From NCBI GenBank assembly GCA_030642005.1, contig DAOWOP010000001.1:1-46498 (forward strand): a stretch of 46,498 bases of DNA, read 5' to 3'. Positions 1-27,005 of this stretch are shown one piece after another. The translations under genes and the position numbers were made by a program. The stretch comes from Planctomycetales bacterium. Its GTDB lineage: Bacteria; Planctomycetota; Phycisphaerae; SM23-33. The notes beneath the pieces were generated by a model. The model was not told the DNA's origin and ran no database searches. It saw only the letters and a program-made list of their open reading frames with translations. Position 1 is the stretch's first letter. Each line of letters opens with the position of its first letter.

Positions 1-1199
1 ACGGTTCGACGCTATCTAACGACGCCTTTCCCTCACGCGAGTTTGACTTCATGCTCTCCAATCCTCCCTACGGCAAGAGTTGGAAGACCGATCTGGAACG
101 CATGGGCGGCAAGAAGGACATGACCGACCCGCGATTCATCATCGAGCACAACGGTGATCCAGAATACAGCCTTATCACCCGCTCCAGCGACGGCCAGCTC
201 ATGTTCCTGGTCAACAAACTCCAGAAAATGAAGCACAACACACCGCTGGGCAGCCGCATCGTCGAGGTCCACAACGGCTCATCGCTGTTCACAGGCGACG
301 CGGGCCAGGGCGAATCCAACATCCGCCGCTGGATCATCGAGAACGACTGGCTCGAAGCCATCATCGCGCTGCCGCTGAACATGTTCTACAACACCGGCAT
401 CGCCACCTACATCTGGGTGCTGACCAACCGCAAGCCGAAACATCGCAAGGGCAAGGTGCAACTCATCGACGCCACCGAGTTCTACCAACCGCTCCGCAAA
501 AACATGGGCGCGAAGAACTGCGAATTGGCTGCCGAGCATATCAAACAAATCTGCGATACGTTCCTTGCCTTCGAAGAAACCGAGCAGTCGAAGATATTCC
601 CCAACAAGGCCTTCGGATACTGGAAGATTCGTGTCGAGCACCCGCTGCGCCTGGTGATTCACGTTACGTCCGGCAATCTCGCCGCCTTCAAGAAGGATGC
701 GCCACAGAAGCTGCACAAAGCCGCCGACCTGCTCGCCGGGGTCGCGGGCGGCTCCAAGCCTCACCTGAACTTCAACGCGGTCCAGCAGCGGTTCAAGTCG
801 GCGATGAAGAAGGCGAACATCAAACTCCGTGCTCCAGACCTCAAGGCCCTCTACGCCGCCTTCACCTTCAAGGACGAGTTGGCCGAACCGGTGATTAAGA
901 AGAAGACCAAGGATGCCGCCGAGTACGAGCCTGACACTGATCTGCGCGATACCGAGCAGGTGCCATTGCTCGAAGAAGGCGGCATCGAGGCGTTCTTCCG
1001 CCGCGAAGTCCTGCCTCACGTCCCTGATGCCTGGATCGACCAGTCGGCCACAAAGATCGGCTACGAAATCTCCTTCACGCGCCATTTCTTCAAGCCGCCG
1101 GAGATGCGCCCCTTGGACGACATCAAGGCCGACTTGCTGGCGCTTCAAGAAGAAGGCGAGGGCCTGCTCGAAGAAATCGTGGGAGGGCAGCCGGCATGA
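1..1199 (+). CDS. hsdM: Type I R-M DNA methyltransferase subunit HsdM, C-terminal ~395 aa (5' end outside the window)
   Basis: Frame 3 is open from base 3 (GSTLSNDAFPSREFDFMLSNPPYG...). N6-adenine methyltransferase motif IV NPPYG is encoded at 60-74. The stop overlaps the next start (ATGA at 1196-1199), and hsdS and hsdR follow. Confidence 0.9.
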   Translation, partial: GSTLSNDAFPSREFDFMLSNPPYGKSWKTDLERMGGKKDMTDPRFIIEHNGDPEYSLITRSSDGQLMFLVNKLQKMKHNTPLGSRIVEVHNGSSLFTGDAGQGESNIRRWIIENDWLEAIIALPLNMFYNTGIATYIWVLTNRKPKHRKGKVQLIDATEFYQPLRKNMGAKNCELAAEHIKQICDTFLAFEETEQSKIFPNKAFGYWKIRVEHPLRLVIHVTSGNLAAFKKDAPQKLHKAADLLAGVAGGSKPHLNFNAVQQRFKSAMKKANIKLRAPDLKALYAAFTFKDELAEPVIKKKTKDAAEYEPDTDLRDTEQVPLLEEGGIEAFFRREVLPHVPDAWIDQSATKIGYEISFTRHFFKPPEMRPLDDIKADLLALQEEGEGLLEEIVGGQPA

Positions 1200-3118
1200 C
1201 CGATGATCTTCGCCCATATCCCGAATACAAGGACTCTGATGTGCCGTGGCTCGGTGAGACCCCTCGCCATTGGGGGCGAACGCATGGTGGAGCGGTCCTC
1301 CAGCAGAAGCGGGTCCGTAATCGTGGCATGATCGAGGACACCGTCCTCTCACTTAGCTATGGGCGGATCGTCATCAAGCCCCCTGAGAAACTCCACGGCC
1401 TTGTGCCGGAGTCTTTTGAGACGTACCAGATCGTCGATCCAGGCGACATCATCATTCGGCCAACGGATCTTCAAAACGACTGGAACACCATTCGTGTCGG
1501 CATCGTCAAGGGTCGAGGCATCATCACCTCGGCGTATCTGTGCTTCCGCACCCGCGAGCCGCTCACCGCCGAGTACGCGCACCTGCTCCTACTCGGTTAT
1601 GACCTCAAGAAGATCTTCTACGGCATGGGGTCAGGTCTCCGCCAGAACCTCGACTGGTCAGACTTCAAGCGCCTGCCGATTTTGCTGCCTCCACCTGAGG
1701 AGCAGAGGGCCATCGTCACCTACGTGAATCGGTTGGATCTACAGGTGCGCCAATTCATCCATAACCGGCGGCGGCTGATCGAAGTGTTGAACGAGCGGAA
1801 GCAAGCCATCACCCACCGCGCTGTCACCGGGGGCCTCGTTCCCGATGTCCATCTCAAACCCTCCGGTGTCGAGTGGCTCGGCGACGTACCGGAACATTGG
1901 GAGGTAACACCTGGTCGAAATTGCTTTTTTGAGAAGAAACAAACGAATGTTGGACTAATGGAATCGACTGTTTTGTCGTTGAGCTATGGCAATATTGTAA
2001 TCAGGCCAGAAGAGAAGCTGCATGGGCTTGTTCCAGCGTCATTCGAAACCTACCAGATTGTAGAGTCGGGCGACATTATTTGTCGTCCCACTGACCTGCA
2101 GAATGACAAGAAAAGCCTTCGCTTCGGTTTCTCCAAACATCGTGGCATTATCACGTCCGCATATCTATGTTTCAGAACAAGTTCCAGAATAGATAGTTAT
2201 TTCGCATATCTGCTTCTTCATACATACGACCTGAAGAAGATAATCTACCGTCTTGGCTCTGGCCTTCGTCAGAATCTTGCGTGGGGTGATTTCAAGAGTT
2301 TGCCTTGCCTACTCCCACCGCTCTCCGAGCAAACCGCAATCGTCGAGTATCTCGAAAAAACGACCGCTGATATTGACACCGCCATCAACCGCGCCCACCG
2401 CGAAATCGGCCTGATCCGCGAATACCGCACGCGGCTAATTGCCGACGTGGTAACAGGCAAGGTGGACGTGCGGCAAGTCTCTGCGATGACAGCAACATCA
2501 ACTGCGACTGAGGCCAAGCCAGCCCAACCCAAGCGCACCGCGAACGTTTACTTCCGCCGGTCAGTGTTTGCCGCCGAAATTGTACAGCGTCTCCACGAAG
2601 AACCGACCTTCGGTCATGTAAAATTCGAGAAACTGATTTTCCTGTGTGAGAAGCAGTGTGGCGTGGACACCGGATCGACGTACCATCGGCAGGCCGCGGG
2701 ACCATATGACAATCGCGCGCTTCGATCCATCGACAGCCAGATGGAGAAGCAGAAATGGTACGCCGCTCAGCAGGTCGAAGGGCGCTACCAGTATGTTCCC
2801 TTGGCCAAAGCGGGCGGCCACAAGACGTACTTCGACCGGTACTTCGCAAATGTTGAATGGGAGTTCTCGAACATCATTGAGACCTTCCGCACACTGAACA
2901 CACAACGGTGCGAGATTGTCGCCACGTTGTATGCCGTATGGGAAGACCTGCTGGCGCAGAGCGACAACGTTACGGGCGACCAAATCGTCGAACAAGTACT
3001 CCACCACTGGCACCCATCTAAGCAAGAGGTCGATGAGAATCGGTGGCGGCAGGCGATTGGCTGGATGAGGAAGAAGGGCTTGACGCCCAAGACTGGGGGC
3101 TCCGATGCCGACGACTGA
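1196..3118 (+). CDS. hsdS: Type I R-M specificity subunit HsdS with two near-identical target-recognition domains and an extra ~200-aa C-terminal domain
   Basis: There are two TRD-like halves (LSLSYGRIVIKPPEKLHGLVPESFETYQIV... and LSLSYGNIVIRPEEKLHGLVPASFETYQIV...). Each is followed by the conserved HsdS helical spacer (LPPPEEQRAIVTYV..., LPPLSEQTAIVEYL...REYRTRLIADVVTGKVDV). At 640 aa it is much longer than a typical HsdS. It overlaps hsdM (ATGA) and hsdR. Confidence 0.85.
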   Translation: MTDDLRPYPEYKDSDVPWLGETPRHWGRTHGGAVLQQKRVRNRGMIEDTVLSLSYGRIVIKPPEKLHGLVPESFETYQIVDPGDIIIRPTDLQNDWNTIRVGIVKGRGIITSAYLCFRTREPLTAEYAHLLLLGYDLKKIFYGMGSGLRQNLDWSDFKRLPILLPPPEEQRAIVTYVNRLDLQVRQFIHNRRRLIEVLNERKQAITHRAVTGGLVPDVHLKPSGVEWLGDVPEHWEVTPGRNCFFEKKQTNVGLMESTVLSLSYGNIVIRPEEKLHGLVPASFETYQIVESGDIICRPTDLQNDKKSLRFGFSKHRGIITSAYLCFRTSSRIDSYFAYLLLHTYDLKKIIYRLGSGLRQNLAWGDFKSLPCLLPPLSEQTAIVEYLEKTTADIDTAINRAHREIGLIREYRTRLIADVVTGKVDVRQVSAMTATSTATEAKPAQPKRTANVYFRRSVFAAEIVQRLHEEPTFGHVKFEKLIFLCEKQCGVDTGSTYHRQAAGPYDNRALRSIDSQMEKQKWYAAQQVEGRYQYVPLAKAGGHKTYFDRYFANVEWEFSNIIETFRTLNTQRCEIVATLYAVWEDLLAQSDNVTGDQIVEQVLHHWHPSKQEVDENRWRQAIGWMRKKGLTPKTGGSDADD

Positions 3119-6050
3119 CACATCCGAGAAAGGCCTGGAGACTTTGATCGTCGAGTCACTCGTGAACGAGGCCGGCTACGAACAAGGTCTGCCCGACGAC
3201 TACGACCGCGACCACGCAGTTGACCTGGCGAAGATGCTGGCATTCCTGGCGGCCACACAGCCGAAGGCAGTCGAGGCGCTGGGCCTGGCCGAGGACGGGC
3301 CGAAGCGGACACAGTTCCTTCATCGCCTTCAGGGCGAAATCGCCAAGCGCGGCGTGATTGATATTTTACGGAATGGCGTTAAGCATGGGCCGGTGAGCGT
3401 GGAGATGTTCTACGCCGCGCCCACGCCGGGGAATACAAAGGCAGAGCAGTTATTCGCAGCCAACATTTTCAGCGTTACTCGCCAGCTTCGTTACAGCAAG
3501 GATGAGACGCAGTTGTCGCTGGATTTGTGTGTGTTCATCAACGGCTTGCCTATCGCCACATTCGAACTCAAGAACTCTCTGACCAAGCAGACGGTTGCTG
3601 ATGCGGTGCAACAATACAAGCGGGACCGCAACCCCAAGGAACTGCTCTTTGCATTCGGGCGGTGCATGGTGCACTTCGCCGTGGACGACCAAGAAGTGCG
3701 GATGTGTACGCACCTTCAGGGCAAGCACTCGTGGTTCCTGCCGTTCGACATCGGTTGGAATGATGGAGCCGGTAACCCGCCGAACCCGACCGGCCTGAAG
3801 ACGGACTACCTTTGGAAGCAGGTCCTGACCAAGGCCAGGCTGACGGACATTATCGAGAACTACGCCCAAGCCGTGGAGGAGAAGGACGACAAGGGCAGGA
3901 AGAAACGCAAGCAGATATTCCCGCGTTACCACCAGCTTGACGTGGTGCGGAAACTACTGGCCGACGCAGAGGCCGGCGGGGCCGGCAAGCGATACTTGAT
4001 CGAGCACTCAGCCGGCAGCGGCAAGAGTAACTCCATCGCATGGCTGGCCCATCAATTGATTGGCCTAGAGAACCGTGGGAAGGCGATCTTCGATTCCATC
4101 ATCGTCGTTACGGATCGGCGGGTGCTGGACAAGCAGATTCGGGACACGATTAAGCAGTTTGCACAAGTCTCGGCCGTTGTAGGGGCCGTCACCGAGGGAG
4201 CCAAGCAGCTTCGGAATTTCATTCAACAAGGCAAGAAGATTATCATCTCGACGGTCCAGAAGTTCCCATTCATCCTGGACGAGATCGGTGACGAGCATCG
4301 CGGACGGAAGTTCGCCATCATTATCGACGAGGCCCATTCCAGCCAAGGCGGCCGGACCTCAGCGAAGATGAACATAGCACTATCGGAGACCGGCGGCGAG
4401 GAAGAGGAAGAAACCACCGAAGACAAGATTAACCGCATCATGGAGTCGCGGAAGATGCTCACCAACGCGAGTTACTTCGCTTTTACCGCGACACCGAAGA
4501 ACAAGACGCTGGAGATATTCGGCGAGCCGTACCGGGAAGGCGATAAGACCCGGCATCGGCCATTCCACTGCTACACGATGAAGCAGGCCATCCAGGAAGG
4601 CTTCATATTAGACGTGCTGAAGAACTACACGCCGGTCGAAAGCTATTACCGCCTGATGAAGACGGTGCCCGACGACCCGGAGTTCGATACGAAAAAGGCT
4701 ACGAAGAAGCTCCGCCGATACGTCGAATCGCATGAGCATGCGATCCGGCAGAAGGCGGAGATCATGGTTGATCACTTCCATAACCATGTGCTGGCCCGCA
4801 GGAAAATTACCGGGCAGGCGCGGGCTATGGTGGTCACTAGCGGAATTCGGCGGGCGATCCAGTATTATCACGCGTTCGTGGATTACCTTCGGGAACGAAA
4901 GATCCCGTACAAGGCTATCGTGGCGTTTTCCGGCGAGCACGAGTATGGCGGGCAGAAAGTAACCGAGGCATCGCTGAACGGTTTTCCGAGCAGCCAGATC
5001 GTGAAGAAGTTTCAGCAGGAGCCGTATCGCTTCCTCATCGTGGCGGACAAGTTCCAGACCGGCTACGACGAGCCGCTGCTACACACGATGTACGTGGACA
5101 AAATCCTCTCCGGCATCAAGGCTGTGCAGACGCTGTCGCGTCTCAACCGTGCCGATCCTCGCAAGCACGATACGTTTGTGTTGGACTTCATGAACGACGC
5201 CGACACCATCGAGGCGGCCTTCGCGGACTACTACCGCACGACTATCCTCAGCGAGGAGACAGACCCGAATAAATTGCACGACCTAAAGGCTGCGCTGGAC
5301 AGACGCCAGGTTTATGCCTGGCCACAGGTGGAAAATCTGGCCGAGTTGTATCTCGACGGAGCAGACCGGGACAATCTGGACCCGATTCTTGATGCGTGCG
5401 TGGCCGTCTATAATGCCGATCTGGACGAGGACGGACAGGTTGATTTCAAAGGCAAGGCCAAGGCGTTCTGTCGGACATACGGCTTTCTCGCGTCGATCTT
5501 GCCGTACACGAACGCAGATTGGGAGAAGCTGTCAATCTTCCTGAACTTTCTGATTCCCAAGCTGCCAGCACCAATCGAGGAAGATTTGGCTAAGGGAATC
5601 CTGGAGGCCATCGACATGGATAGCTATCGCGTCGAGGTTCAGGCGGCGATGGAGATCGCTCTGCCGGATGATGATGGCCAAGTCGGACCAGTGCCGACAA
5701 GCGGTGGAGGCCGTAAGCCGGAACCCGAACTGGACGCACTCAGCAACATCATCAAGGCCTTTAACGACCAGTTCGGCAACATCGAGTGGAAGGATAAGGA
5801 TAGAATTCGCAAAGTCATCAGCGAGGAGATTCCCGCGAAGGTGGCAGCCGACAAGGCCTACCAGAACGCGATGAAGAACTCGGATAAAGCCGCCGCCCGA
5901 CTTGAGCATGACAAAGCGCTCCAGAAAGTCGTCATTGAATTGCTTTCCGACCATACGGAGCTTTTTAAGCAGTTCAGCGATAATCCCAGTTTCAAGAAAT
6001 GGCTGGCGGACACGATCTTCGGTGTCACCTATGAGGGTGACGCTGCGTAA
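3105..6050 (+). CDS. hsdR: Type I restriction enzyme R subunit HsdR (nuclease plus SF2 helicase/translocase)
   Basis: N-terminal PD-(D/E)xK-like motif (DLCVFINGLPIATFELKNS), helicase motif I (HSAGSGKSNS) and DEAH box (IIIDEAHSSQ). It is 981 aa and sits directly after hsdM and hsdS. Confidence 0.92.
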   Translation: MPTTDTSEKGLETLIVESLVNEAGYEQGLPDDYDRDHAVDLAKMLAFLAATQPKAVEALGLAEDGPKRTQFLHRLQGEIAKRGVIDILRNGVKHGPVSVEMFYAAPTPGNTKAEQLFAANIFSVTRQLRYSKDETQLSLDLCVFINGLPIATFELKNSLTKQTVADAVQQYKRDRNPKELLFAFGRCMVHFAVDDQEVRMCTHLQGKHSWFLPFDIGWNDGAGNPPNPTGLKTDYLWKQVLTKARLTDIIENYAQAVEEKDDKGRKKRKQIFPRYHQLDVVRKLLADAEAGGAGKRYLIEHSAGSGKSNSIAWLAHQLIGLENRGKAIFDSIIVVTDRRVLDKQIRDTIKQFAQVSAVVGAVTEGAKQLRNFIQQGKKIIISTVQKFPFILDEIGDEHRGRKFAIIIDEAHSSQGGRTSAKMNIALSETGGEEEEETTEDKINRIMESRKMLTNASYFAFTATPKNKTLEIFGEPYREGDKTRHRPFHCYTMKQAIQEGFILDVLKNYTPVESYYRLMKTVPDDPEFDTKKATKKLRRYVESHEHAIRQKAEIMVDHFHNHVLARRKITGQARAMVVTSGIRRAIQYYHAFVDYLRERKIPYKAIVAFSGEHEYGGQKVTEASLNGFPSSQIVKKFQQEPYRFLIVADKFQTGYDEPLLHTMYVDKILSGIKAVQTLSRLNRADPRKHDTFVLDFMNDADTIEAAFADYYRTTILSEETDPNKLHDLKAALDRRQVYAWPQVENLAELYLDGADRDNLDPILDACVAVYNADLDEDGQVDFKGKAKAFCRTYGFLASILPYTNADWEKLSIFLNFLIPKLPAPIEEDLAKGILEAIDMDSYRVEVQAAMEIALPDDDGQVGPVPTSGGGRKPEPELDALSNIIKAFNDQFGNIEWKDKDRIRKVISEEIPAKVAADKAYQNAMKNSDKAAARLEHDKALQKVVIELLSDHTELFKQFSDNPSFKKWLADTIFGVTYEGDAA

Positions 6051-7476: not shown

Positions 7477-7477
7477 T

Positions 7478-12823: not shown

Positions 12824-12872
12824 GGCTATCCCTTTCCTTATCAAGTTGCCGATACAAGGGTAACCGGGGCCT

Positions 12873-12893
12873 GTGACAGGTCCGGTCGCACCT
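12873..12893 (-). promoter_or_regulatory. Operator-like box, copy A (17/21 match, oriented toward the minus-strand gene 11831-12823)
   Basis: The reverse complement reads AGGTGCGACCGGACCTGTCAC against the consensus ACCTGCGACCGAACCTGTCAT. It lies 50 nt upstream of the ATG at 12823. Confidence 0.55.
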
Positions 12894-12920
12894 GGCCAAG
12901 ATTTCTCAAAAAAATTCGTG

Positions 12921-12941
12921 ACCTGCGACCGAACCTGTCAT
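12921..12941 (+). promoter_or_regulatory. Operator-like box, copy B (exact 21-mer ACCTGCGACCGAACCTGTCAT) upstream of the WYL regulator gene
   Basis: Identical to 13970-13990. It is preceded by an A/T tract and ends 41 nt before the ATG at 12982. It contains an internal direct repeat ACCTG-N7-ACCTG. Confidence 0.65.
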
Positions 12942-12981
12942 GGGTATGGATTACCCTCCACAGTGACGAAAGGATGCAAGT

Positions 12982-13969: not shown

Positions 13970-13990
13970 ACCTGCGACCGAACCTGTCAT
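13970..13990 (+). promoter_or_regulatory. Operator-like box, copy C (exact 21-mer) upstream of the ABC-ATPase/kinase/regulator/GHKL-nuclease operon
   Basis: Exact repeat of 12921-12941, also preceded by an A/T tract (aattattaatatttttt). It ends 58 nt before the ATG at 14048. Confidence 0.65.
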
Positions 13991-14047
13991 ACCTCCCCTT
14001 TATGCTGAACCCATCCATTATGGGTTACATGCGTAAAGGGCAATGAA

Positions 14048-18140: not shown

Positions 18141-18281
18141 CGTGAGCGTTCTTGCGGATCAGAATCTGTATCGGCGTATGGTGACATGAGTTGGAATCAT
18201 GCTGACACCTCAGTCCCGGCGCGTTAGCATGGGTGGCGCAAGTCGAGACTGTTTCGTGCATGGAAAGCGGGCAGAGTTGGC

Positions 18282-21200
18282 ATGAGTCGGCACAATGACC
18301 TTGTGGAGGACTACCTGCAGGATGGCGGGCAGTTGTCAGAGGCAGTGATGGTTGAGAATCTGGAACAGTGCGAACCTGAAGACCTGAACGGGGATGCAGC
18401 CCTCGCGATCTCTAAGATCGCTGAGGACCAACGTGGCCTCTATGAGCGTGAGCCGAGAGAGCTGATCAGCCACTATAACCGCGAGACGAGTGCGCTCGAT
18501 GGTTACCGGGGTCGCCAGATCCTAGAGCTGCTCCAGAATGCAGACGACGCCGGTGCTGATCTCGCGGATGGCTCCCAAGTCGTTTTTGCCTTGGATCGCC
18601 ATCATCTTGTTGTTGCCAACACGGGAACACCGTTCACTTACGACGGGCTGATGTCACTGGTCATCAGTGATTGCAGTCCGAAGCAGCTTGAGCAGAATCG
18701 CTTCATTGGCTGCAAAGGATTGGGCTTTCGGGCCGTGTTGACGTGGACTGAACGGCCCTTGATTGTCAGTGGCTCGCTTCAGGTGTATTTTGACCGTCAG
18801 GCAGCGACTCGCTATGTCGAATCGTTGGCCCAGGACGGTTCAAGGCCCAACCGCGTAGATGATTACCACCGCTCGGTTGGTCGTTGGCCAGTTCCAGTGA
18901 TGCGATTTCCTTTGGTGCCAGCAAACGACCACCCAGACCTTCGGGTTGTACAGCGGTTCCAAGCGAGGGGGTTTACTACGGTAGTCGTATTACCGCTGCC
19001 TGAAGGAGATCGAGGCGATGAAGTGTTCGCGGAAGCTGAGGAACAGCTGACAGAACTACCCTCTGCAGCGTTGCTCTTCTGCCGGCACTTGGTCGATGTT
19101 AAAATCGAAGGCGCTGTGACAAGAAACTGGCTCTTGATCCGCGAGGAAGTAGACCACGAGAGGTCAAGGGTCATTATCTCCGATGGTGAGCAGAGTACTA
19201 CTACTTACTGGGATATCTACCGGCGATCAGGAAGGGTGCCACCAGAGGCCGATACCGAGTCCACAGGTGGCCGGCAGGAGTATGAAACAGGAGTTGCTGT
19301 ACCCGAAACAACAGACGCACCATACGACCGGAACGCTCTTTGTGTGTTTTTTCCCACCCGCGAACGCCTGCCATGCCCGCTTATCTTCCACGCAACGCTC
19401 GAGACAACGGAAGACCGAAATCGGATTGTCGATCACGCATCGAATCGCTATGTCCTGAAGGCATTAGCGGCGCACTTGGCCAGCGTTCTTGAGCAGGAGT
19501 CGCAGGGCGAAGATTCACATAGGCCCTTACGACTGCTGAGCGGAATCGAGAACGCCGACCCTGAACTCGTGAGGTTGGGCTTCGTCGAAAGCGCGAAACA
19601 AGCCGTGCGGGACACGCGGTTATTTCCCCGTCTCGACGGTCGTTTGGAAACAGCCGACAACACGGTTCTTCCGCCGCATGACGTATGGGCCGATGTGGCG
19701 GACGCCAGATGGTTCCCGGAAATGCTAGTGCTACCCTCGAACGAACGAACTGTGGACCTTGTGCGTTGGTTGGGGCTCTCGTGGCTGGACCGGGATTCTC
19801 TGAAGTTGCGTCTGCGGACGATGGTCGCGGCGGCTGAGCCTGAACGAGCGGGCACAACGCTTGGCCAACTGGTTGATGCGAACCAGCTGCGCTCTATTGG
19901 AGTCAATGGCTTTCTGCTGGAACGGCAGGGCTGTCCTGTTGCCGAAGGTGAAGAGTGTTTCTTCACGCCGACCGAGGAGTTGCCGCCACTGCCAGCATGG
20001 GCGCAAGGCGTGCGATTCCTGGATGCCGCTTTTCAGCGTGCGCTGTTGCAGGCATCCGGCCACTCGTCCCTTCGCGGCCTGGCCGGCGAGATGGAGCGAA
20101 ACGCGGCCAAGGTATCCGAGTACCGATTCGACACTGTGGCGCGTGCGATCATTTCACCCCTGAATTTGGATAGCGAATTGCCCGATGCCGAGCGAGTGCA
20201 ACGCTGGCGAGAGATCTTGGCATGGCTGCTTCGGGCGTCTGAGGGTTCGCGGCAAGTTCTTTCGCAGCTACCGGTCAATGTCGTGACGGCTAAAGGCACA
20301 CTAAAGCGAGCAACTTCTCTATACCTCTCTGGCGAATACCAACGTGGTCGACTCGTGGCCCGTCTGTACGGGCCGCTCGATGAGGACGACTTCGTGGCGA
20401 AGCCTGAAGGATTGGGCTTGTCCGAACTCGGCGAGGTAGAGGTGGAGGAGTTCCTGATCGCCCTTGGGGTCCATGCAACGCCACGGTCTACATCACTATC
20501 CACCACCTATAGTCGGCCGAATGTGGACTACCGCGCTTTCCGCGAGTTCGTGGTGGATAGCCTTCCATTCCCGATCTCCGTGCGATCAAAGCTGTGCGAA
20601 TCGCCAAGCGATGTGCGCAGCCACTGCAGCAGTTACCAGATCAAGGGTGTGAACGTACCTGATCGGTTCCTACGCATACTCAAAGAGGGAGATCCCGTCG
20701 CCGTCATGGCCTACCTGATGTCTGAACAGCAGACAGTCTTGTCTGCCGAGAACATCGAGAGCGCATGTTTCCAGGCCACGATTGAAAATGAACGGAACTA
20801 CCGGGATGATCACGCCGTGCCCATCCCCAACCCGGTGCTGCATTGGCTTAGAGAGACCCCATGGGTGCCAGGCCAAGATGGTGAGCGGCATCGTCCCGCT
20901 GAGATCATGCTGAGCCGCATCGGCCTGAGGGTGCTGCCCAGCGTGTACTGCCGACATGCGATTGATCACCGTAATGAGATGCTGGCCTCGCGGGGTGGCA
21001 AACAGGCCATGGACGCGGTCTTGTGTCGTCTCGGGGTTGTGGCATCGCTGGAGACGATGGCGAGTGAGCAGGTCTACGACCTCCTCCTGTCTTTGCCCGA
21101 GCGCGACCCGCAAGGACAATCCGTCTCGGCGATCTACCGCACGTTCCTGGAGTCGAATATCACCGCCGAGGACGGTCCCAACCGCTCGGAGTTTCTGCGG

Positions 21201-22628
21201 AACGGCAAGGTGTGGGCCAGGTATCAGGGCGAAGGCCATTTCCTGCCTGTAGCGCAGGTGCGGTACAACGCGAACGTCACTTTGCCAGACGCAGTCGTGT
21301 CACGCATAGCTCTGCTCGACCTGCCACGGCGTCGTAACGCCACGGCGGTGAAGCAGTTGCTCGACGTCAAGCCGCTGTCGTCAGGGGAAGTCGCGTTGGA
21401 AGTCGTCCAAGACGACACCGAGTACGACGTCCACAGCGAAGATGCCAACGCATTCTTGCGGCGGTGCATCCCGTACATATACGCGCTGCGACTCGGCAAG
21501 AAGATAGACGATGATTTCCGAGAGCGTAACTTGCTCAAGCGCACGTCACTATACGTCTGCAATTGCCTGGCGGTTCGCGTGTCGATTGAGGGGCAAGAGC
21601 CGGAAACGCTGATCTTGGATCATGCTAAAGACCACATCTGCATCGAATCACAACTCTACCTTGTGGGTCAATATGATCCGGATGGGGCGGGGGCGACAAG
21701 CTTCTGGTTGTCCGTGGCTGGACTTGTTGCAGAGGCCCTTGGGACCGACATTGCGGCCGAAGTCAGTGCTGTGCTCCGTTGCCGATCAGAGCGTGAAATG
21801 CAAGAGGTCGTGGAAGGGCTCCTCGGGCCGGAGGCAGGTGGGAAACTTGAGGAGGCACGACGGCGGTTCGATGACTGGGATATCGTGGGAGACGATGAGG
21901 ACATGGTCATCATACCTCCAAGCCCTGAGCCTGACCAGCCAGGAGAAGAAGGGAAAAAGAGCGACGAGGGAGGTGACGAGAAGACGGAGGGAAAAACAGC
22001 GGGACAAGACGACGAAAGCGGCGGTGAGGATGAGAATGAGGCTGGTGGCAAAGCCGGCACCGAGTCTGATCAGCGGTTCACAACAACCAGCCCCCCAGAC
22101 CGCAAGTCGAAGAAGAAGCGACGCCTTGTGATCAACCGCCATGGCGGCGGAACTGGCGGCGGTGGTCACGGACCTGTTGCGACGGAGAGTGTTACGTTCC
22201 AAATCGTGGAAGCCTTTGAGCGCCAAGATGGGGAAGGTAGGTTTGTGATCGACGTGAGCCATATTCGCGGAAGCGAGGGGTTCGGCTGTGACCTGCTCAG
22301 CATGAGTTCCGAGGATGTGAAAGAGAAGGCTCTTGCCAGCGGGGAGATCTCCGAGGGCGAAGTAGACAGGTTCATCGAGGTGAAGGGACGGAGTTCACGA
22401 ACAGGCGAGGTAGAACTTACAGAGAACGAATACCGCGCCGCCGAGAGGCTCGGAAACCGGTATTTTCTCTATCGTGTGTTCGTGGACCCAAGTGATTCGT
22501 CTGTGTACGAAGTCGCCGTGCTCCAGAACCCGGTTCGTTCTTCCGCAACGCGAACGGTGACGCGCTTCGATTTAAGCAAGGGTTCCGGGGCAGTCTGGTA
22601 CGCCCTCGAGGAGGTTACGGAAGAATGA
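18282..22628 (+). CDS. 1448-aa protein: sacsin/NOV-like GHKL ATPase head, large middle region, acidic low-complexity linker, C-terminal DUF3883-like PD-(D/E)xK nuclease domain
   Basis: N-box RQILELLQNADDAGA (18513-18557) and GCKGLGFRAVLTW. Acidic/Gly linker EEGKKSDEGGDEKTEG...GGEDENEAGG at ~21890-22170. C-terminal GCDLLS ... FIEVKGRSS ... YFLYRVF is typical of DUF3883 (from memory). Confidence 0.75.
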   Translation: MSRHNDLVEDYLQDGGQLSEAVMVENLEQCEPEDLNGDAALAISKIAEDQRGLYEREPRELISHYNRETSALDGYRGRQILELLQNADDAGADLADGSQVVFALDRHHLVVANTGTPFTYDGLMSLVISDCSPKQLEQNRFIGCKGLGFRAVLTWTERPLIVSGSLQVYFDRQAATRYVESLAQDGSRPNRVDDYHRSVGRWPVPVMRFPLVPANDHPDLRVVQRFQARGFTTVVVLPLPEGDRGDEVFAEAEEQLTELPSAALLFCRHLVDVKIEGAVTRNWLLIREEVDHERSRVIISDGEQSTTTYWDIYRRSGRVPPEADTESTGGRQEYETGVAVPETTDAPYDRNALCVFFPTRERLPCPLIFHATLETTEDRNRIVDHASNRYVLKALAAHLASVLEQESQGEDSHRPLRLLSGIENADPELVRLGFVESAKQAVRDTRLFPRLDGRLETADNTVLPPHDVWADVADARWFPEMLVLPSNERTVDLVRWLGLSWLDRDSLKLRLRTMVAAAEPERAGTTLGQLVDANQLRSIGVNGFLLERQGCPVAEGEECFFTPTEELPPLPAWAQGVRFLDAAFQRALLQASGHSSLRGLAGEMERNAAKVSEYRFDTVARAIISPLNLDSELPDAERVQRWREILAWLLRASEGSRQVLSQLPVNVVTAKGTLKRATSLYLSGEYQRGRLVARLYGPLDEDDFVAKPEGLGLSELGEVEVEEFLIALGVHATPRSTSLSTTYSRPNVDYRAFREFVVDSLPFPISVRSKLCESPSDVRSHCSSYQIKGVNVPDRFLRILKEGDPVAVMAYLMSEQQTVLSAENIESACFQATIENERNYRDDHAVPIPNPVLHWLRETPWVPGQDGERHRPAEIMLSRIGLRVLPSVYCRHAIDHRNEMLASRGGKQAMDAVLCRLGVVASLETMASEQVYDLLLSLPERDPQGQSVSAIYRTFLESNITAEDGPNRSEFLRNGKVWARYQGEGHFLPVAQVRYNANVTLPDAVVSRIALLDLPRRRNATAVKQLLDVKPLSSGEVALEVVQDDTEYDVHSEDANAFLRRCIPYIYALRLGKKIDDDFRERNLLKRTSLYVCNCLAVRVSIEGQEPETLILDHAKDHICIESQLYLVGQYDPDGAGATSFWLSVAGLVAEALGTDIAAEVSAVLRCRSEREMQEVVEGLLGPEAGGKLEEARRRFDDWDIVGDDEDMVIIPPSPEPDQPGEEGKKSDEGGDEKTEGKTAGQDDESGGEDENEAGGKAGTESDQRFTTTSPPDRKSKKKRRLVINRHGGGTGGGGHGPVATESVTFQIVEAFERQDGEGRFVIDVSHIRGSEGFGCDLLSMSSEDVKEKALASGEISEGEVDRFIEVKGRSSRTGEVELTENEYRAAERLGNRYFLYRVFVDPSDSSVYEVAVLQNPVRSSATRTVTRFDLSKGSGAVWYALEEVTEE

Positions 22629-22869: not shown

Positions 22870-22901
22870 AAAGGCCCGCTTGAGCAATCCGGCGGGCCTT
22901 T
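22870..22901. terminator. GC-rich hairpin, candidate intrinsic terminator
   Basis: AAAGGCCCGC (22870-22879) pairs with GCGGGCCTTT (22892-22901) across a 12-nt loop. A/T runs flank it on both sides. A smaller hairpin ACGGGTT/AACCCGT lies at 22840-22857. Confidence 0.5.
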
Positions 22902-23170: not shown

Positions 23171-23205
23171 AAAAGCGCTCACATGATCGTCATGTGAGCG
23201 CTTTT
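23171..23205. terminator. Perfect 16-bp stem hairpin, candidate bidirectional intrinsic terminator
   Basis: AAAAGCGCTCACATGA (23171-23186), loop tcg, TCATGTGAGCGCTTTT (23190-23205). An A run precedes the stem and a T run follows it. Confidence 0.65.
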
Positions 23206-23391: not shown

Positions 23392-24237
23392 ATGGATATC
23401 GACTGGCTCCAGAAGCGGTTCCCCGACTTGACCAATTTCGTCCCCTTGGCTCCAAGCGGGCAGAAGGAGGTATTTGCTGCGGATCACAAGACTGAGGGCG
23501 CAGTGGTGCTTAAAATATTCAAGCCGGGGTCTAACGCCGAGCGCATCCAACGAGAGATGCAATCACCGCTCAAGATGAGAAGTTCACGCATACCGACGAT
23601 ATACGAGTTGGGCCGAACAGATTCGCCTACCGGCGAGATCGTCTGGCTCCGAGAGAAGAAGGTTGAAGGCCAGAGCCTGAGGGAAATACTTAAGGCGAAG
23701 GGCAAGCTCGACGAGGGGACCACCATCAGGATTGGCCTCCATGTCATTGATGTGCTGGCTGCCGCCGAGGTCGCGAGCGTGGTTCATCGCGACATAAAGC
23801 CTGGCAACATCATCATTGCCATGGACGGCAGCGCGTGGGTAATCGATTTCGGGCTGGCGCGTCATCTCGATCAGGAGTCACTGACGCCTACCGTGGACAA
23901 ACTAGCTCCCTGCACGCCCGGCTACGCGCCCGTCGAGCAATTCACAAACCAGAAACACAACATCGACGCTCGAGCTGACCTGTTCGCAACGGGCGTGACT
24001 CTCTACGAGTGCCTTGAGGGTGAGAATCCGTTCCTCAAGGGAGTGATAGACTGGAAGGAAGCATTCGGTCGTGTTATGAACATGAAGATGCCCAGGATCG
24101 GAACCAGCGGTGTGTCGGAAGAGTTCGTCGATCTTGTCGACTCGATGACACGCACAAAGGCGGAACACCGCCCAGCTACGGCGGCGGTGGCGTTGCAGTG
24201 GATCAGAGAAATCGCCATGGCGCATAAGATCATCTAG
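23392..24237 (+). CDS. Ser/Thr protein kinase (Hanks type), kinase domain only
   Basis: VVLKIFKPG (catalytic Lys region), HRDIKPGNIII, DFGLAR, TPGYAPVEQ. The ORF track starts at 23323. ATG 23392 (MDIDWLQ) follows GAAGGAA and is the more plausible start. Confidence 0.85.
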   Translation: MDIDWLQKRFPDLTNFVPLAPSGQKEVFAADHKTEGAVVLKIFKPGSNAERIQREMQSPLKMRSSRIPTIYELGRTDSPTGEIVWLREKKVEGQSLREILKAKGKLDEGTTIRIGLHVIDVLAAAEVASVVHRDIKPGNIIIAMDGSAWVIDFGLARHLDQESLTPTVDKLAPCTPGYAPVEQFTNQKHNIDARADLFATGVTLYECLEGENPFLKGVIDWKEAFGRVMNMKMPRIGTSGVSEEFVDLVDSMTRTKAEHRPATAAVALQWIREIAMAHKII

Positions 24238-24255
24238 CTCATAAGGAAAACTCCC

Positions 24256-25488
24256 ATGGATTTTTACCTCCAGTTTGCGTACCAGATGCAGGTGGTTTGC
24301 TGCGATCTCATCCAAGAGTGGGGTGGCGGCACAGTCATCATGAGCCCCCGCGACTGCAAGCCGCTGGGTGAGGATAAGTCCGGCGAGTTGGAGAAGCATG
24401 CGGCGTCCATTCGTGTTGTCGGAGGGAGAATCCTGATCGATCCGCAGTTTTACAGGCCAGAGTCGGACCACAAGGTTCTCACGTCGCACGCCTATTGGCC
24501 TGATAAATATGACAGCGTCGAGTTCTGGGAGAAGAGGGATGAGCCGGACTACGGCGAGCTGCTCAAGAGGCTTGGGGAGTTAAACGCCAAGGTTGAAGCA
24601 TCGGCCATCATCTTGCCCGGTACGCTGGCCACAGTGGTCGATGACGAATGGCTCGCTCGTCAGTCAAGGATGATCGGGGCCGCGCGCATGGAATACGGTG
24701 ATGATGAGGAGTTGCTGGCGACGGTGGCTCTCTCTGCCGACGCGGTTAGGTCCGCTGATCAGGTCCACGCCATTCTGGCGGCAGCGGGCGATTGGAGGGT
24801 GCAGGGGATATACCTGATCTGCGAGCACCCAGACGGACAATATTTGGTCGAGAACGATGCTTGGATTGCCAACATCCTTGACTTGACGGCTGGATTCCGT
24901 CTTCGCGGGCAGAGCGTTGTGATCGGCTACGCGAACCAACAAATGTTGGTCGCCGCCTGCGCATCGGTTACCGCCATCGCCTCCGGCAGCCATAAGATGA
25001 AGCGGCAGTTCTCGTCGTCCACGATGATGGAGAAGGACGGCGATGATGTCATGAGGCAAGCGACGTGGTACTATTGCCCACAAGCGTATTCTGAATTCAA
25101 GATCCCGCGTCTGGATTCGGCGAACTTGCAGAAGGTGTTGGGCAAGCTCCGGCATCCAGAAGATATGGGGGTCTGCCACGCTGACGTCCTGTTCGCTGGC
25201 GCACAGCCGTCCACGGTAGGTTTCAGGCACAAGCTGTCGTTCAAGCACTACCTCGGATCCCTCCACGCGCAATCGTTAGCACTCAGGAAGGCCACATTCA
25301 ACGATACGGTTCAAGTATACAGGGGCTCTCTCGATGCTGCAGAAAAGTTACTGAAGGAACTACAGGCCAAGCGCATCCGAGCGGAGGAACGTAGTTTCTT
25401 ACCAGCCGTCGACCCCACGCACGTTGGCGTCAATATGTTGGTCGAAGACCGAGGTGCGATGCTTCGGCATGTGTGGCCAAATCTGTAG
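24256..25488 (+). CDS. Hypothetical 410-aa protein, co-transcribed with the kinase
   Basis: RBS AAGGAAAA lies upstream, and the gene starts 18 nt after the kinase stop. Alternating hydrophobic strands and helices (VIMSPRD, ILIDPQFY, IILPG, GIYLICE, VVIGYAN, AIASGSH) suggest an alpha/beta, possibly TIM-barrel-like, fold. I recognise no catalytic motif. Confidence 0.55.
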   Translation: MDFYLQFAYQMQVVCCDLIQEWGGGTVIMSPRDCKPLGEDKSGELEKHAASIRVVGGRILIDPQFYRPESDHKVLTSHAYWPDKYDSVEFWEKRDEPDYGELLKRLGELNAKVEASAIILPGTLATVVDDEWLARQSRMIGAARMEYGDDEELLATVALSADAVRSADQVHAILAAAGDWRVQGIYLICEHPDGQYLVENDAWIANILDLTAGFRLRGQSVVIGYANQQMLVAACASVTAIASGSHKMKRQFSSSTMMEKDGDDVMRQATWYYCPQAYSEFKIPRLDSANLQKVLGKLRHPEDMGVCHADVLFAGAQPSTVGFRHKLSFKHYLGSLHAQSLALRKATFNDTVQVYRGSLDAAEKLLKELQAKRIRAEERSFLPAVDPTHVGVNMLVEDRGAMLRHVWPNL

Positions 25489-26308
25489 AGGCAACACGGG
25501 CATGACATGCCCATTCGTTGAACAACCATGACGCGTAGGAACCGGGCAACTTTGCCTTCTCGGCCCGGATCACTGGCCGGCGCATCGGCGTATCACATGT
25601 GAGCAGCCCGACACCCGTTTGCCTCAATTCAATCTCTAACTCGGCGGACTTTGGTACCCCCGGAAGGAGCAAATAAGACTCTGACGCGAACCAGCGGTTA
25701 AGAAATGCCTGTTCTAGGCCAGGTCGCCATGATCCAACCTTCGCCTCAATAGCGACTATGCGCCTGACGGCCATTAGCTTCCTAGGCCTCTGGGCTTGCC
25801 ATCGGTCCCGGGCACACCGCACTAGACCCATTGACTCCAGTTTGCGCAGGGCGCTACGAAGACCTACTGGGAACAAGAAACTGAGCCGAGCCTGATCCTC
25901 ACTCCCGCAGGTGGCCAAGTGGTGAAGCACGCAGATATCATGCTTGCTGAGGCCAGTTCGCCGAAAGCTCCATTCGCTGGCAGCGGCAGAGTCCAGATAA
26001 ACGATCACTAAGTCTGGAAACCCCGTCTCGAGTCGGGGTTCGACGAACACCAATCGCACCTGCCCGTTTGGTGCCGGTGCCAAGTTGCTCCGAATGAACG
26101 CATCCACAAGCTCCTTTTCCTGCCCCTCCGTCACCCGACGGTGGTAGAGCCCAGCGCCACGTAGCGAGGGGAAGTATTCGATTGTCTCTGCGGAAATCGC
26201 AATCATGGTGCGTCCTGTCTCGTCTCCGGTTACCGAACCGCCAGTTTCCTGAAGCTTATCGTAACGCCGCTGTAGCCGTTTGGGAAGAATCTGGCCCGCA
26301 CGCATCAT
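25430..26308 (-). CDS. Hypothetical protein with PD-(D/E)xK nuclease-like motifs and an inserted wHTH-like segment
   Basis: GFPDLVIVYLD ... IVAIEAKVGSW fits a D...ExK pattern. LHHLATCGSEDQARLSFLFPVGLRSALRKLESMGLV lies between them. The likely start is the ATG at 26308 that overlaps the upstream stop (ATGA). The ORF track extends to 26362. The 3' end overlaps the convergent gene by 59 bp. Confidence 0.45.
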   Translation of the reverse strand: MMRAGQILPKRLQRRYDKLQETGGSVTGDETGRTMIAISAETIEYFPSLRGAGLYHRRVTEGQEKELVDAFIRSNLAPAPNGQVRLVFVEPRLETGFPDLVIVYLDSAAASEWSFRRTGLSKHDICVLHHLATCGSEDQARLSFLFPVGLRSALRKLESMGLVRCARDRWQAQRPRKLMAVRRIVAIEAKVGSWRPGLEQAFLNRWFASESYLLLPGVPKSAELEIELRQTGVGLLTCDTPMRRPVIRAEKAKLPGSYASWLFNEWACHARVASTDLATHAEASHLGLRPTY

Positions 26309-26772
26309 CGACCGTTTGATTGCCCGATGATTAGCCATTGTTGTCGCTGCTTCTGCCAACACGCCGGCAGATTCTTGTGCAACTTGCTCAAACTGATCCC
26401 ATCCGGCTCATCACCCCGCAGGATGGCCTCGATGATGTCGGGGGCGAGGGATGTCAGACGGAGCATCCGCCCGGCGTAGGTGCGGTCAACGGCGAGGGCT
26501 TGGGCCAGGTTTTCGACGCCAGCGTACTGGCCGGATTCGAGTTGCTCCTGCCAGCGGTGGGCCTTGGCGATGGCCTCGATGAGCGTCTGGTTGGCGTCGC
26601 GTTCGGGCGTCGGCGCGGCGGCTGGCTCGCCGTCGGTCAGTATCATCTGCCTGCCGTTGCGGCGGCGGAACCGCACGGGGATATGGACCACCACGGCTTG
26701 GCCTTCGCGTCGGACGCGGAGGCCCGGGTAGCGGCGTTTTTGTTCGTTCTCGATAACGGCCGTGTCATGCAT
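26305..26772 (-). CDS. Small DNA-binding (HTH-like) protein of a family often seen next to recombinases and in mobile elements
   Basis: AKAHRWQEQLESGQYAGVENLAQALAVDRTYAGRMLRLTSLAPDIIEAILRGDEP matches, from memory, a conserved ...SYVGRxLRLTLLAPDIVEAIL... family. ATG 26772 has the GAGGAA RBS. The ORF track starts at 26805. Confidence 0.55.
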   Translation of the reverse strand: MHDTAVIENEQKRRYPGLRVRREGQAVVVHIPVRFRRRNGRQMILTDGEPAAAPTPERDANQTLIEAIAKAHRWQEQLESGQYAGVENLAQALAVDRTYAGRMLRLTSLAPDIIEAILRGDEPDGISLSKLHKNLPACWQKQRQQWLIIGQSNGR

Positions 26773-26810
26773 TTGCTCGTTCCTCGATTGGCTGGAGTTC
26801 ATCAACGATT

Positions 26811-27005
26811 TGCCGGGATGAGGACAAGAACTCCGACGGCGATTGCACGGACGCAGCCGACGACTTCGACAACGAAATCCTCTACTGCGGCTACCACCGC
26901 GACAGCGAGACGGGCCTATACCACGTCCGCTACCGGATGTATCATCCCCACCTTGGCCTCGAACTTCTCGCTCGGCCTCTCTCTACGAAGAGGTTATTCG
27001 GATAG
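26811..27005 (+). pseudogene. Short remnant of an RHS/YD-repeat protein
   Basis: Frame 0 reads ...DKNSDGDCTDAADDFDNEILYCGYHRDSETGLYHVRYRMYHPHLG...*. The YxxxxETGLYxxRxRxYxPxLG pattern is the YD/RHS repeat signature. There is no start codon or upstream repeats, so it is a fragment. Confidence 0.45.

Follow-up and report, generated by a model that had tools for sequence, protein, structure and literature searches.

A probable Planctomycetota anti-phage defence island containing three conserved three-gene cassettes, two of them with candidate histidine kinase-receiver pairs

The left-hand part (positions 1-26805) of a 46,498-nucleotide (nt) stretch of DNA from a Planctomycetales bacterium (GenBank assembly GCA_030642005.1, contig DAOWOP010000001.1; the whole stretch is called the window) is probably a horizontally assembled Planctomycetota anti-phage defence island, which starts in the cargo slot of a prophage and comprises at least five independent units. 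These are a type I restriction-modification (R-M) system, a cassette A (6118-11712), a cassette B (14048-18140) with its candidate WYL-family repressor, the defence gene Tiamat, and a cassette C (23392-26206). The gene map was built from an open reading frame (ORF) listing and from Pfam, PADLOC and NCBIfam scans of the window proteins. Known systems were assigned by profile (PADLOC, NCBIfam) to type I R-M and Tiamat, and the remaining genes were sorted into three three-gene cassettes, whose content is constant and whose flanks vary by genome and often hold defence or mobile-element genes; PADLOC gave no system assignment for any of the three. This bears out a preliminary description made from the letters alone, which had called the left 27 kb a multi-system defence island.

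The gene content, the conservation of the three cassettes, their intact catalytic motifs and the defence-rich neighbourhoods were observed directly, and all anti-phage activities, phosphotransfer steps and functions discussed below are predictions from sequence and context. The island as such is ordinary, and the cassettes are candidate systems, not demonstrated ones. We propose tentatively, and with the odds somewhat against both parts holding together, that cassette B is an undescribed alarm system confined to Planctomycetota and that cassette A is the first case of a receiver-held MazF-like toxin fired by a paraMORC-kinase DNA sensor.

Cassette A

Cassette A consists of an N6/N4-type DNA methyltransferase (6118-7476, + strand; PADLOC MTase_II PDLC03360, 3.9e-107), an 828-amino-acid (aa) fusion of a paraMORC-type GHKL ATPase and a histidine kinase (7478-9964, +; Pfam HATPase_c_3 4.2e-16, HATPase_c 3.4e-16), and a 583-aa protein that is receiver-like at its N-terminus and MazF-like in the fold of its C-terminus (9961-11712, +), whose gene overlaps the kinase gene by 4 nt. 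In the 828-aa protein, the N-terminal GHKL ATPase (HATPase_c_3, aa 29-144) is followed by a conserved middle region and then by the histidine-kinase core (HATPase_c, aa 716-804), and both modules score over the Pfam gathering thresholds. The N-terminus is paraMORC/BbrUII-HgiDII-like (NCBIfam restrict_BbrUII, 2.5e-22, aa 9-227), and many NCBIfam kinase models match aa 590-812, where the H-box 'LSHEVFN' (H609) is followed by N, G1 and G2 boxes. Copies with 75% identity were found in a Pseudomonadota-named metagenome-assembled genome (MAG) and in a second MAG, and none of the motifs varies among them.

At least 293 clusters (~575 aa) make up the family of the 583-aa protein, with members named from Phycisphaerae, Pseudomonadota, Chlorobiales and Magnetococcus; those listed are 53-76% identical, and none has a Pfam domain. 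An AlphaFold model (pLDDT 77) places a five-stranded alpha/beta domain with an 80-aa helical insert at aa ~20-225, joined to the C-terminal domain by a helical linker. Within the family D30 and D31 are near-invariant and D154, D156, T189 and K220 invariant, and in the model D30 D31, D154, T189 and K220 lie at the ends of strands 1, 3, 4 and 5, respectively, in a receiver-like strand order. The C-terminal domain (aa ~330-570) carries the motif 'GDIF...YILLAQPCDLMVR' in a MazF/PemK-like barrel; the last 254 residues modelled alone reached a pLDDT of 86 and a pTM of 0.83, and in a Foldseek search of the PDB with the C-terminus nearly all of the top 28 matches were MazF/PemK toxins, with ~90 residues aligned.

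The trio was found in all four other loci that reach the upstream side (L023, L024, L025 and L114; L numbers denote the loci compared), with the same 445-aa methyltransferase and an 827-829-aa GHKL protein before the 583-aa homolog. The flanks are unrelated to one another and hold an integrase, a transposase and AbiEii in L023, PDDEXK_2 and DUF433 in L024/25, and JetD, an MNT-type nucleotidyltransferase, RadC and AbiEii in L114.

From this architecture, cassette A is predicted to be an R-M-like abortive two-component system. The methyltransferase would mark self DNA, the paraMORC-type GHKL half of the 828-aa protein would sense foreign or unmodified DNA, and the kinase half would autophosphorylate on H609 and pass the phosphate to D154 of the 583-aa protein. 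Phosphorylation of D154 would then free the MazF-like C-terminal domain to act as a toxin or nuclease, by which the infected cell would be stopped.

Cassette B, its upstream regulator and Tiamat

The first gene of cassette B encodes an ABC/SMC-like ATPase of the Ppl/TrlF type (14048-15934, +; NCBIfam TrlF_fam_ATP 2.4e-84, with further matches to NCBIfam Ppl_antiphage, 9.1e-35, and PADLOC Ppl, 1e-21). Only positions 290-944 of the TrlF profile were matched, the N-terminal PHP domain (~290 aa) being missing, and the scores lie under the family cut-offs (284.7 versus 350 bits for TrlF, 119.8 versus 1000 for Ppl). The Walker A (GHRGTGKTT), signature (LSTGQK) and Walker B (LLVDQPED) motifs and the H-loop are invariant across six loci.

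The second gene encodes a soluble-type HEAT-repeat histidine kinase (15934-17082, +; Pfam HATPase_c 3.8e-18, 66 bits; HEAT_2 3.1e-06), whose HEAT repeats at the N-terminus precede a DHp domain (H160) and a catalytic domain, and in which H160, N273, D308-G310-G312 and G338-W-G340 are invariant among 18 kinases. Its family comprises ~55 relatives of similar length and 54-78% identity, after which there is a gap to generic kinases (E ~1e-9); PADLOC 2.0 gave no match. The third gene encodes a response regulator with a receiver (REC) domain and a putative winged helix-turn-helix (wHTH) (17079-18140, +; Pfam Response_reg 7.3e-14, 52.3 bits against a cut-off of 30.2), in which D8, D52, T89 and K113 are invariant among ten regulators; when aligned with PhoB by hhalign (probability 96.8), only the REC domain was covered. 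The kinase and regulator genes overlap by 4 nt and form a classical two-component pair. An OmpR-type wHTH that had been read by eye into the middle domain of the regulator was discarded, being unsupported by Pfam, by hhalign to PhoB and by a PDB profile search.

When 185,579 species were scanned for the pattern, each represented by one genome, nine cassette B loci were recovered, all in Planctomycetota MAGs, two of which hold two copies each, with one copy degraded. In every recovered locus with enough flank the ATPase, kinase and regulator genes stand side by side, with stop and start codons that overlap in all cases where genes were called; their surroundings show no other conservation. The neighbours include DUF1156/DUF499 genes (L002, L005, L014), a DUF499-like gene (L015), an OLD-family nuclease (L008), a DISARM-like DrmD with a type III methyltransferase (L012), type I-G Cas3/Cas5-6/Cas7 (L018, L019), a type IIG methyltransferase with a PIN gene (L016), and a nucleotide cyclase-like gene with a radical SAM gene (L011).

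A WYL-family regulator with HTH, WYL and WCX domains (12982-13959, +; Pfam WYL 1.5e-14, WCX 8.7e-14, HTH_11) lies ahead of cassette B in the window and, at 74-77% identity, in L005/L014 and L008, and is a probable repressor of the cassette. It is followed by a putative WYL operator/promoter region (13968-13994, +) with the inverted repeat GGTG(C/T)GAC-N7-GTC(G/A)CAC, which, as read by eye, is degenerate in the window and near-perfect at the same place in L005 and L008. The upstream region differs in the cassette B loci that have no WYL gene.

Downstream of cassette B lies the Tiamat gene tmtA (18282-22628, +; 1448 aa; PADLOC TmtA PDLC03964, 7.2e-199), the profile match covering aa 43-1196 of the protein and positions 13-1139 of 1538 in the model. 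TmtA has a candidate Sacsin/HSP90-like GHKL N-terminus, a large middle region and a C-terminal NOV_C (DUF3883) domain of the PD-(D/E)xK type; NOV_C scored over its cut-off (1.1e-12, 48.3 bits) and the N-terminal SACS match lies below gathering (2.3e-07, 31.3 versus 32.8 bits), with an N-box 'LLQNADDAGA' visible. A TmtA with 76% identity follows cassette B in L002-L004. A promoter-like site lies ahead of the gene at 18202-18230, with a similar site in L002. A literature search on the mechanism of Tiamat returned nothing relevant.

We suggest that cassette B acts as a switch. The ATPase would sense an infection cue, by analogy with the PARIS, Lamassu and Septu ATPases, the HEAT domain of the soluble-type kinase would read the state of the ATPase, and H160 of the kinase would phosphorylate D52 of the regulator. 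The phosphorylated regulator would bind DNA through its winged helix and alter the transcription of effector genes, switching them on, and the WYL protein would otherwise hold the cassette B operon repressed. In the window, the target of the regulator would most likely be the co-directional Tiamat gene, 142 nt downstream.

Several further features were seen around cassette B. The two copies at L013 4600-12200 and L019 8100-12200 lie ~74 kb apart on one 4.6-Mb Planctomycetota MAG contig; in the L013 copy the ATPase gene is truncated, ~3.8 kb of other ORFs precede the kinase gene and the regulator match is split across reading frames, and in the L019 copy the kinase match is split in two. Directly after the regulator gene in L005/L014, on the opposite strand (12524-12952, -), lies a gene for a 142-aa MarR-like protein that shares 34% identity with the last 108 residues of the cassette B regulator and is possibly a paralogous competitor or anti-regulator. 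WYL-less loci have a strong sigma-70-like promoter (CTTGACAA-N17-TGCTAACTT) and a leader of ~200-300 nt before the ATPase start (L002 ~7800-8105, L011 ~850-1090, L015 ~7850-8100, L016 ~7850-8105). The first part of this leader ('GCGAATCCCRCCC...GGGTAGYGGGCCGACTG') is conserved in L011, L015 and L016 and partly in L002, and is absent from the window; the leader may be a regulatory RNA or a small ORF. Just past the regulator stop codon, TGACR direct repeats with a spacing of 17-21 nt were noted (window 18182-18208, L011 ~5231-5253, L016 ~12227-12249, L013 ~12263-12308), and L011 and L016 have a 33-nt block in common after the stop despite different downstream genes. As a shared regulator-binding motif TGACR was rejected, the spacing of about two turns occurring in the window and L013 only, and the motif is not claimed because it was chosen after viewing the data.

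Cassette C, type I restriction-modification and the gene inventory

Cassette C comprises a Hanks-type Ser/Thr kinase (23392-24237, +; Pfam Pkinase 3.7e-28; PADLOC PD-T4-6 PDLC04042, 3e-43), a 410-aa protein, p410 (24256-25488, +), and a PD-(D/E)xK-like protein (25430-26206, -). The kinase ORF opens at 23323; homologs begin at M24, which places the true start at ~23392. The 410-aa protein represents a conserved family of at least 171 clusters in Planctomycetota, Acidobacteriota, Cyanobacteria and Myxococcota, with no match in Pfam, PADLOC, NCBIfam, PHROGs or the PDB. Elsewhere a Hanks kinase (276-285 aa) and a protein of 235-249 aa are invariably encoded ahead of it, and the trio is colinear in seven of seven other loci (Gimesia maris, a Bryobacteraceae MAG, Hassallia byssoidea and four IMG/VR contigs); the kinases that adjoin 410-aa homologs are 43-47% identical to that of the window in L106-L108 and 36-46% identical in L109-L112. 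All three genes are present in the window, because the first protein of the trio is homologous to that encoded at 25430-26206 (36-41% identity and E values of 1e-45 to 1e-55 when the first genes of L106-L108 were used in tblastn), whose gene is first in the trio elsewhere and is here downstream and inverted. The family of this protein has 775 representatives at 50% clustering, with invariant E56, P64-D65, E154-(A)-K156 and Q166.

The type I R-M system consists of three contiguous, overlapping genes, each with its diagnostic domains. HsdM (1-1199, +; Pfam N6_Mtase 2.1e-22; PADLOC MTase_I PDLC03029, 1.8e-138) extends into the window with its last 399 codons, having its start ~865 nt to the left of position 1, and in the parent scaffold (L021) the full protein has 687 aa with HsdM_N. 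HsdS (1196-3118, +; 640 aa) has two Methylase_S domains and matches PADLOC Specificity_I (8.8e-90, aa 6-430), and HsdR (3105-6050, +) has HSDR_N, SWI2_SNF2, ResIII and T1R_D3-like domains in Pfam and matches PADLOC REase_I (9.6e-44). HsdS also carries an extra C-terminal domain of ~200 aa (aa 428-632; window 2477-3115 corresponds to aa 428-640), which matches only the C-terminal ends of some PADLOC HsdM/HsdS models (PDLC03039, 3.2e-52); aa 428-640 had no Pfam match.

Nearly all of the components named in the preliminary description were recovered by these scans, at the coordinates given there: the type I R-M system, the extra methyltransferase (6118-7476), the WYL regulator, the SMC-like ATPase with its invariant ABC motifs, the Hanks kinase ending at 24237, and the two PD-(D/E)xK-like domains, which are NOV_C in TmtA and the protein at 25430-26206 with its invariant P-D...E-A-K...Q. 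Four GHKL modules had been proposed, of which the two in 7478-9964 and the one in 15934-17082 stand and that of TmtA stays below threshold; the richness in GHKL domains, taken as a theme of the island, turned out to be a by-product of three unrelated systems. Two kinase/receiver pairs had likewise been named, of which 15934-17082/17079-18140 is canonical and the receiver of the other (9961-11712) found no profile match by Pfam or hhalign. The mobile-element debris was reduced to an HTH protein with a weak ParB-type HTH match (26305-26805, -); for the reported RHS fragment Pfam gave nothing, and a six-frame search for the YD/RHS core motif hit no real ORF.

PADLOC matches to the MADS components mad2, mad3, mad5 and mad6 fell on HsdM, the ATPase, HsdS and the Hanks kinase, and were rejected as domain-level matches because the matched genes belong to different units.

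Alternative readings of cassettes A and B

Several results weigh against the functional readings proposed for cassettes A and B. Neither Response_reg nor Response_reg_2 of Pfam matched at E<=5 in 27 members of the 583-aa family, Response_reg_2 did not match the isolated N-terminus of the 583-aa protein at E<=0.5, and alignment of this N-terminus with the cassette B REC alignment by hhalign failed, as it did with the helical insert excised (REC alignments including CheY, Spo0F, PhoB, OmpR and NtrC). Searches of the PDB by phmmer and by profile found no receiver, and whole-chain Foldseek gave no match at E<0.1, its best matches being HypB and G-alpha proteins, not receivers. The N-terminal domain was termed receiver-like, not receiver, because the profile methods fail and whole-chain Foldseek is silent, and these same results favour a reading in which it is some other flavodoxin-like domain and the kinase half of the 828-aa protein acts on itself or on another partner. 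Such an arrangement appears unlikely: the positions of the acidic pair, Asp, Thr and Lys coincide exactly with the ends of strands 1, 3, 4 and 5, where receivers have them, the 583-aa gene is the constant partner of the kinase gene with a 4-nt overlap, and the published Response_reg_2 family is just as distant from canonical REC (PMC8011034). The MazF-family matches of the C-terminus are non-significant singly (probability <=0.96, TM ~0.45-0.54, E 0.07-0.7) and Pfam PemK did not match any of the 27 members, so that the MazF-like fold is a consistent lead, not proof. For cassette B, the putative winged helix (aa 293-351) was matched by TrmB and HVO_A0261_N at ~3e-5 to 6e-5 on the isolated C-terminus, which is sub-gathering, the conserved middle domain of the regulator (aa ~130-290, ~160 aa) has no counterpart among Pfam models, and a comparison of the loci downstream of the regulator gene revealed no conserved motif to which the regulator might bind. 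Tiamat stands behind cassette B in two contexts only, the window and L002-L004, and for this reason is not taken as a general target of the regulator. The main rival is accordingly that the trio acts alone through the regulator middle domain, with no transcriptional output to its neighbours: the regulator or its middle domain would hit phage DNA, or the ATPase would be the effector, and Tiamat would be a mere neighbour. It draws on the trio being the sole unit conserved across loci, with downstream genes differing in nearly every context and TmtA absent in at least eight contexts, and on the middle domain having no assigned fold. The lack of a recognisable effector in cassette B, in whose three proteins nuclease, NADase, pore and other toxic domains went undetected, troubles the switch as a complete system and speaks also against the trio acting alone, as do the specific loss from the ATPase of the PHP domain of its Ppl/TrlF relatives and the winged helix being the only recognisable output domain; we regard autonomous action as somewhat unlikely, if a serious competitor to the switch. 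That both kinase/regulator pairs are housekeeping two-component systems (for example in DNA repair or stress) lying by chance among defence genes is highly improbable. The cassette B regulator does resemble a transcription factor, RecN and Rad50 models match the cassette B ATPase weakly, and GC content does not set the region apart; yet both pairs travel as fixed cassettes with changing flanks, copies can be duplicated or degraded, nearly all contexts examined have defence or mobile-element neighbours, no input domain recognised as periplasmic or metabolite-sensing is present in either kinase, and the distribution is rare and patchy (nine cassette B loci among 185,579 species genomes; cassette A at 75% identity in a Pseudomonadota-named MAG). 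Both kinases are soluble-type and lie within mobile cassettes, and no assignment of the pairs to ordinary metabolic regulons, which would have told against the preliminary description, emerged.

Extent of the island and prophage context

The window is part of a 121,366-nt ENA scaffold (ERZ23497743, scaffold_1), where it takes up, in reverse, roughly positions 5687-52184, and the 8.8 kb to the left of window position 1 (L021 1-8805) hold a siphovirus-type tail module, which had been overlooked. Its genes encode a major tail protein, a Mom-like DNA-modification protein, a 665-aa tape-measure protein and further tail proteins, and are followed by a DUF6398 gene (-), an HTH_17 gene and then the full HsdM. 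The tape-measure protein has 66 relatives in IMG/VR, most of them 45-91% identical, and the tail module is colinear in ~60 loci; among GenBank phages only distant tape-measure relatives were found. The IMG/VR relatives diverge downstream of the tail genes, where DUF6398 and HTH_17 recur: in L131 the same HTH_17 gene is followed by genes for a C5 methyltransferase and a MutL-like GHKL protein, and L147 has HsdM-like and HsdR-like genes downstream of the same tail genes. Because related viral contigs hold other R-M-like cargo at this place, the island was taken to begin in a variable cargo slot of a phage family.

The left boundary of the island thus lies outside the window, and a right boundary at ~26.8-27.0 kb is consistent with the data, in line with the earlier proposal of a boundary near 27,000. 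The right-hand 19 kb are ordinary, as had been stated, with a tetratricopeptide repeat (TPR) protein, a PilT-like ATPase, DUF6515, an ion channel, an RND pump with its membrane-fusion protein, an OprB porin and a sulfatase. The GC and codon-usage profiles suggested as a check gave a mixed answer. GC content is roughly level (~0.53-0.62) over the entire window, and GC content at third codon positions (GC3) is mosaic among the cassettes, at 0.55-0.60 in cassette A (6118-11712), lower than in the rest of the contig, 0.73-0.78 in cassette B (14048-18140), 0.81 in the upstream WYL gene and 0.61-0.75 in most right-hand genes, which suggests several acquisitions.

Counting against a discrete, horizontally acquired island are the absence of a sharp boundary in GC, the absence of any visible integrase, attachment (att) site or tRNA (55 kb were examined for an integrase or att repeat, and tRNA gene and Rfam scans of the window gave no match), and the poor synteny evidence at the right boundary, where the TPR protein has no relative in JGI metagenomes, PilT relatives reach at most 73% identity (full-length match) with no common neighbours, and the single close relative obtained by cluster look-up lies on a 9.5-kb contig that stops short of the boundary. 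The phage genes on the left raise the further possibility, real though with less than even chances, that the entire 27 kb are cargo of the adjacent prophage and lie inside its att sites, instead of being a chromosomal island against which the prophage abuts. The island starts right after the tail genes, DUF6398 (-) and HTH_17, in related viral contigs these markers stand ahead of other R-M-like cargo, every gene from HTH_17 to p410 but that of the ARPP-1 protein runs in the direction of the tail genes, and cassette C is present on viral contigs. Against this, 27 kb would be very large for a phage of 34-53 kb (the size of the longer related contigs), the GC3 mosaic suggests more than one acquisition, no integrase or att repeat is visible, and neither cassette A nor cassette B was found in IMG/VR, a result that also counts against the main reading of the island.

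Comparison with described systems

Detocs is said to contain a cytoplasmic histidine kinase with an N-terminal repeat-type sensor that uses His-Asp transfer as a defence signal, and reportedly also a receiver fused to an output domain, a buffer receiver and a PNP ATP-nucleosidase effector. Taken with this composition, Detocs resembles the present cassettes in the cytoplasmic repeat-sensor kinase, the His-Asp defence signal and the receiver-output fusion, and differs in that neither cassette A nor cassette B has a stand-alone receiver gene or a PNP domain, so that neither is a member of Detocs; cassette B furthermore adds an ABC ATPase and ends in a predicted DNA-binding regulator. Neither kinase was matched by PADLOC as a defence kinase. 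Detocs (DtcA-DtcB-DtcC) is an experimental precedent for two-component defence signalling (bioRxiv 10.1101/2023.01.24.525353).

Ambrosia (AbrR-AbrA-AbrB-AbrC-AbrD) is experimentally anti-phage and requires the receiver Asp; its five genes, among them those for an XRE regulator and a type IV HNH endonuclease, occur in Gammaproteobacteria, and its receiver carries a wHTH and acts on transcription (bioRxiv 10.1101/2025.09.30.679545). Compared by gene content, cassette A resembles it in that an N6 methyltransferase is clustered with a histidine kinase/HATPase and a receiver or receiver-like protein. With its three genes, cassette A lacks two of the five Ambrosia genes, XRE and HNH genes being absent from the trio in every locus; its 583-aa protein has no detected wHTH, the receiver-like domain being fused instead to a putative toxin fold.

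Two-component-like pairs that join Response_reg_2 (PF19192) with HEF_HK (PF19191) have been tied computationally to paraMORC ATPases and R-M (Bellieny-Rabelo et al. 2021, PMC8011034). Cassette A resembles these in combining an N-terminal HATPase_c_3 (59.6 bits here) and a His-Glu H-box kinase core in one putatively soluble protein (H609-E610 in 'LSHEVFN', the His-acidic pair of HEF_HK-type kinases, is invariant in three distant copies), in its adjacent divergent receiver-like protein, which keeps the DD/D/T/K positions and has loop insertions, and in a closely linked methyltransferase, which in cassette A lies directly upstream in all loci covering that side. It differs in that the Pfam models match neither protein (HEF_HK gave no match at E<=0.01 on the full 828-aa protein), so that family membership by Pfam fails, and in that a C5 methyltransferase is prominent there (PMC8011034), whereas the methyltransferase of cassette A is of the N6/N4 type. 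The cassette A receiver-like protein furthermore has a 350-aa C-terminal part with a MazF-like fold, and the trio has no separate nuclease gene. Since two-component signalling in defence has precedents in Detocs, Ambrosia and Response_reg_2/HEF_HK, cassette A is a variant of a described kind with a new candidate effector, and the earlier view that such signalling is rarely reported in defence gives way to two experimental precedents and, for the first pair, a computational one.

The cassette B ATPase resembles TrlF and Ppl over its whole ATPase region, with weaker matches to models of PARIS AriA, Lamassu LmuB, Septu PtuA and Gabija GajA. With profile positions 1-289 (PHP) unmatched and its score under the NCBIfam cut-off, it falls outside the Ppl/TrlF family; it differs from ATPase-sensor systems in being partnered by a kinase and a regulator, not by a nuclease. 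A literature search found no description of a conflict system that joins an ABC ATPase, a kinase and a receiver/regulator in the manner of cassette B. The WYL protein resembles BrxR/CapW-type WYL regulators in its HTH, WYL and WCX domains and its position upstream of a candidate defence operon, the inverted repeat being clear only in L005 and L008.

Tiamat and PD-T4-6 are catalogued as single-gene systems. In the window and in L002-4, TmtA departs from this in standing directly behind cassette B. The Hanks kinase resembles PD-T4-6 nearly end to end (PDLC04042, 3e-43, profile positions 21-273 of 292), a match that is not specific because PD-T4-6 profiles also match generic Hanks kinases, and it differs in belonging to a trio, with the same two partners in seven of seven other loci.

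Implications

If the proposed switch is correct, cassette B would be a portable module in which an ATPase sensor signals through a HEAT kinase to a DNA-binding regulator that activates whichever effector lies downstream, here Tiamat. It would connect the large class of ABC/SMC-like defence ATPases, for which the output of sensing is little understood, with a phosphorylation signal that can be read, and may give a first clue to the regulation of Tiamat. Cassettes A and B would both use His-Asp phosphotransfer, of which Detocs and Ambrosia are so far the two experimentally validated examples in defence, and cassette A would extend the paraMORC/R-M two-component elements described in 2021 with a candidate effector. 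To our knowledge, there are almost no experimental phage-defence data for Planctomycetota; the island would be a compact source of testable candidates, and the prophage beside it brings in a new phage family of this phylum with a cargo slot in which the defence genes vary.

Other genes and minor observations

A scan of the window for promoter and terminator consensus sequences gave counts at chance level. It missed a terminator-like GC-rich hairpin at 22870-22901 (AAAGGCCCGC...GCGGGCCTTT), 240 nt past the tmtA stop codon. The 760-nt non-coding gap between tmtA and the Hanks kinase gene also contains a perfect palindrome with 16-nt arms (23171-23205, AAAAGCGCTCACATGA-TCG-TCATGTGAGCGCTTTT), which could be a bidirectional terminator or an operator.

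Between cassette A and the WYL gene lies a stand-alone ARPP-1 domain protein (11831-12844, -; Pfam PF20208 ARPP-1, 5.2e-91), for which the PADLOC and NCBIfam scans gave no match; the family owes its name to an association with conflict systems. The last gene of the island, at 26305-26805 (-), encodes the 166-aa HTH protein with the weak ParB-type match. Relatives with 60-69% identity lie, in otherwise unrelated loci, a few kb from cassette B (L005 16448-16708, L008 1854-1976, L013 3331-3795), the recurrence covering fragments or genes in L005-7, L008 and L013, which hints that the protein is part of a mobile element carrying or targeting such islands. At the far right of the window, the sulfatase gene (45022-46473, -), which extends past the contig end, has by a clear margin the lowest GC content (0.479) and GC3 (0.50) of all window genes.

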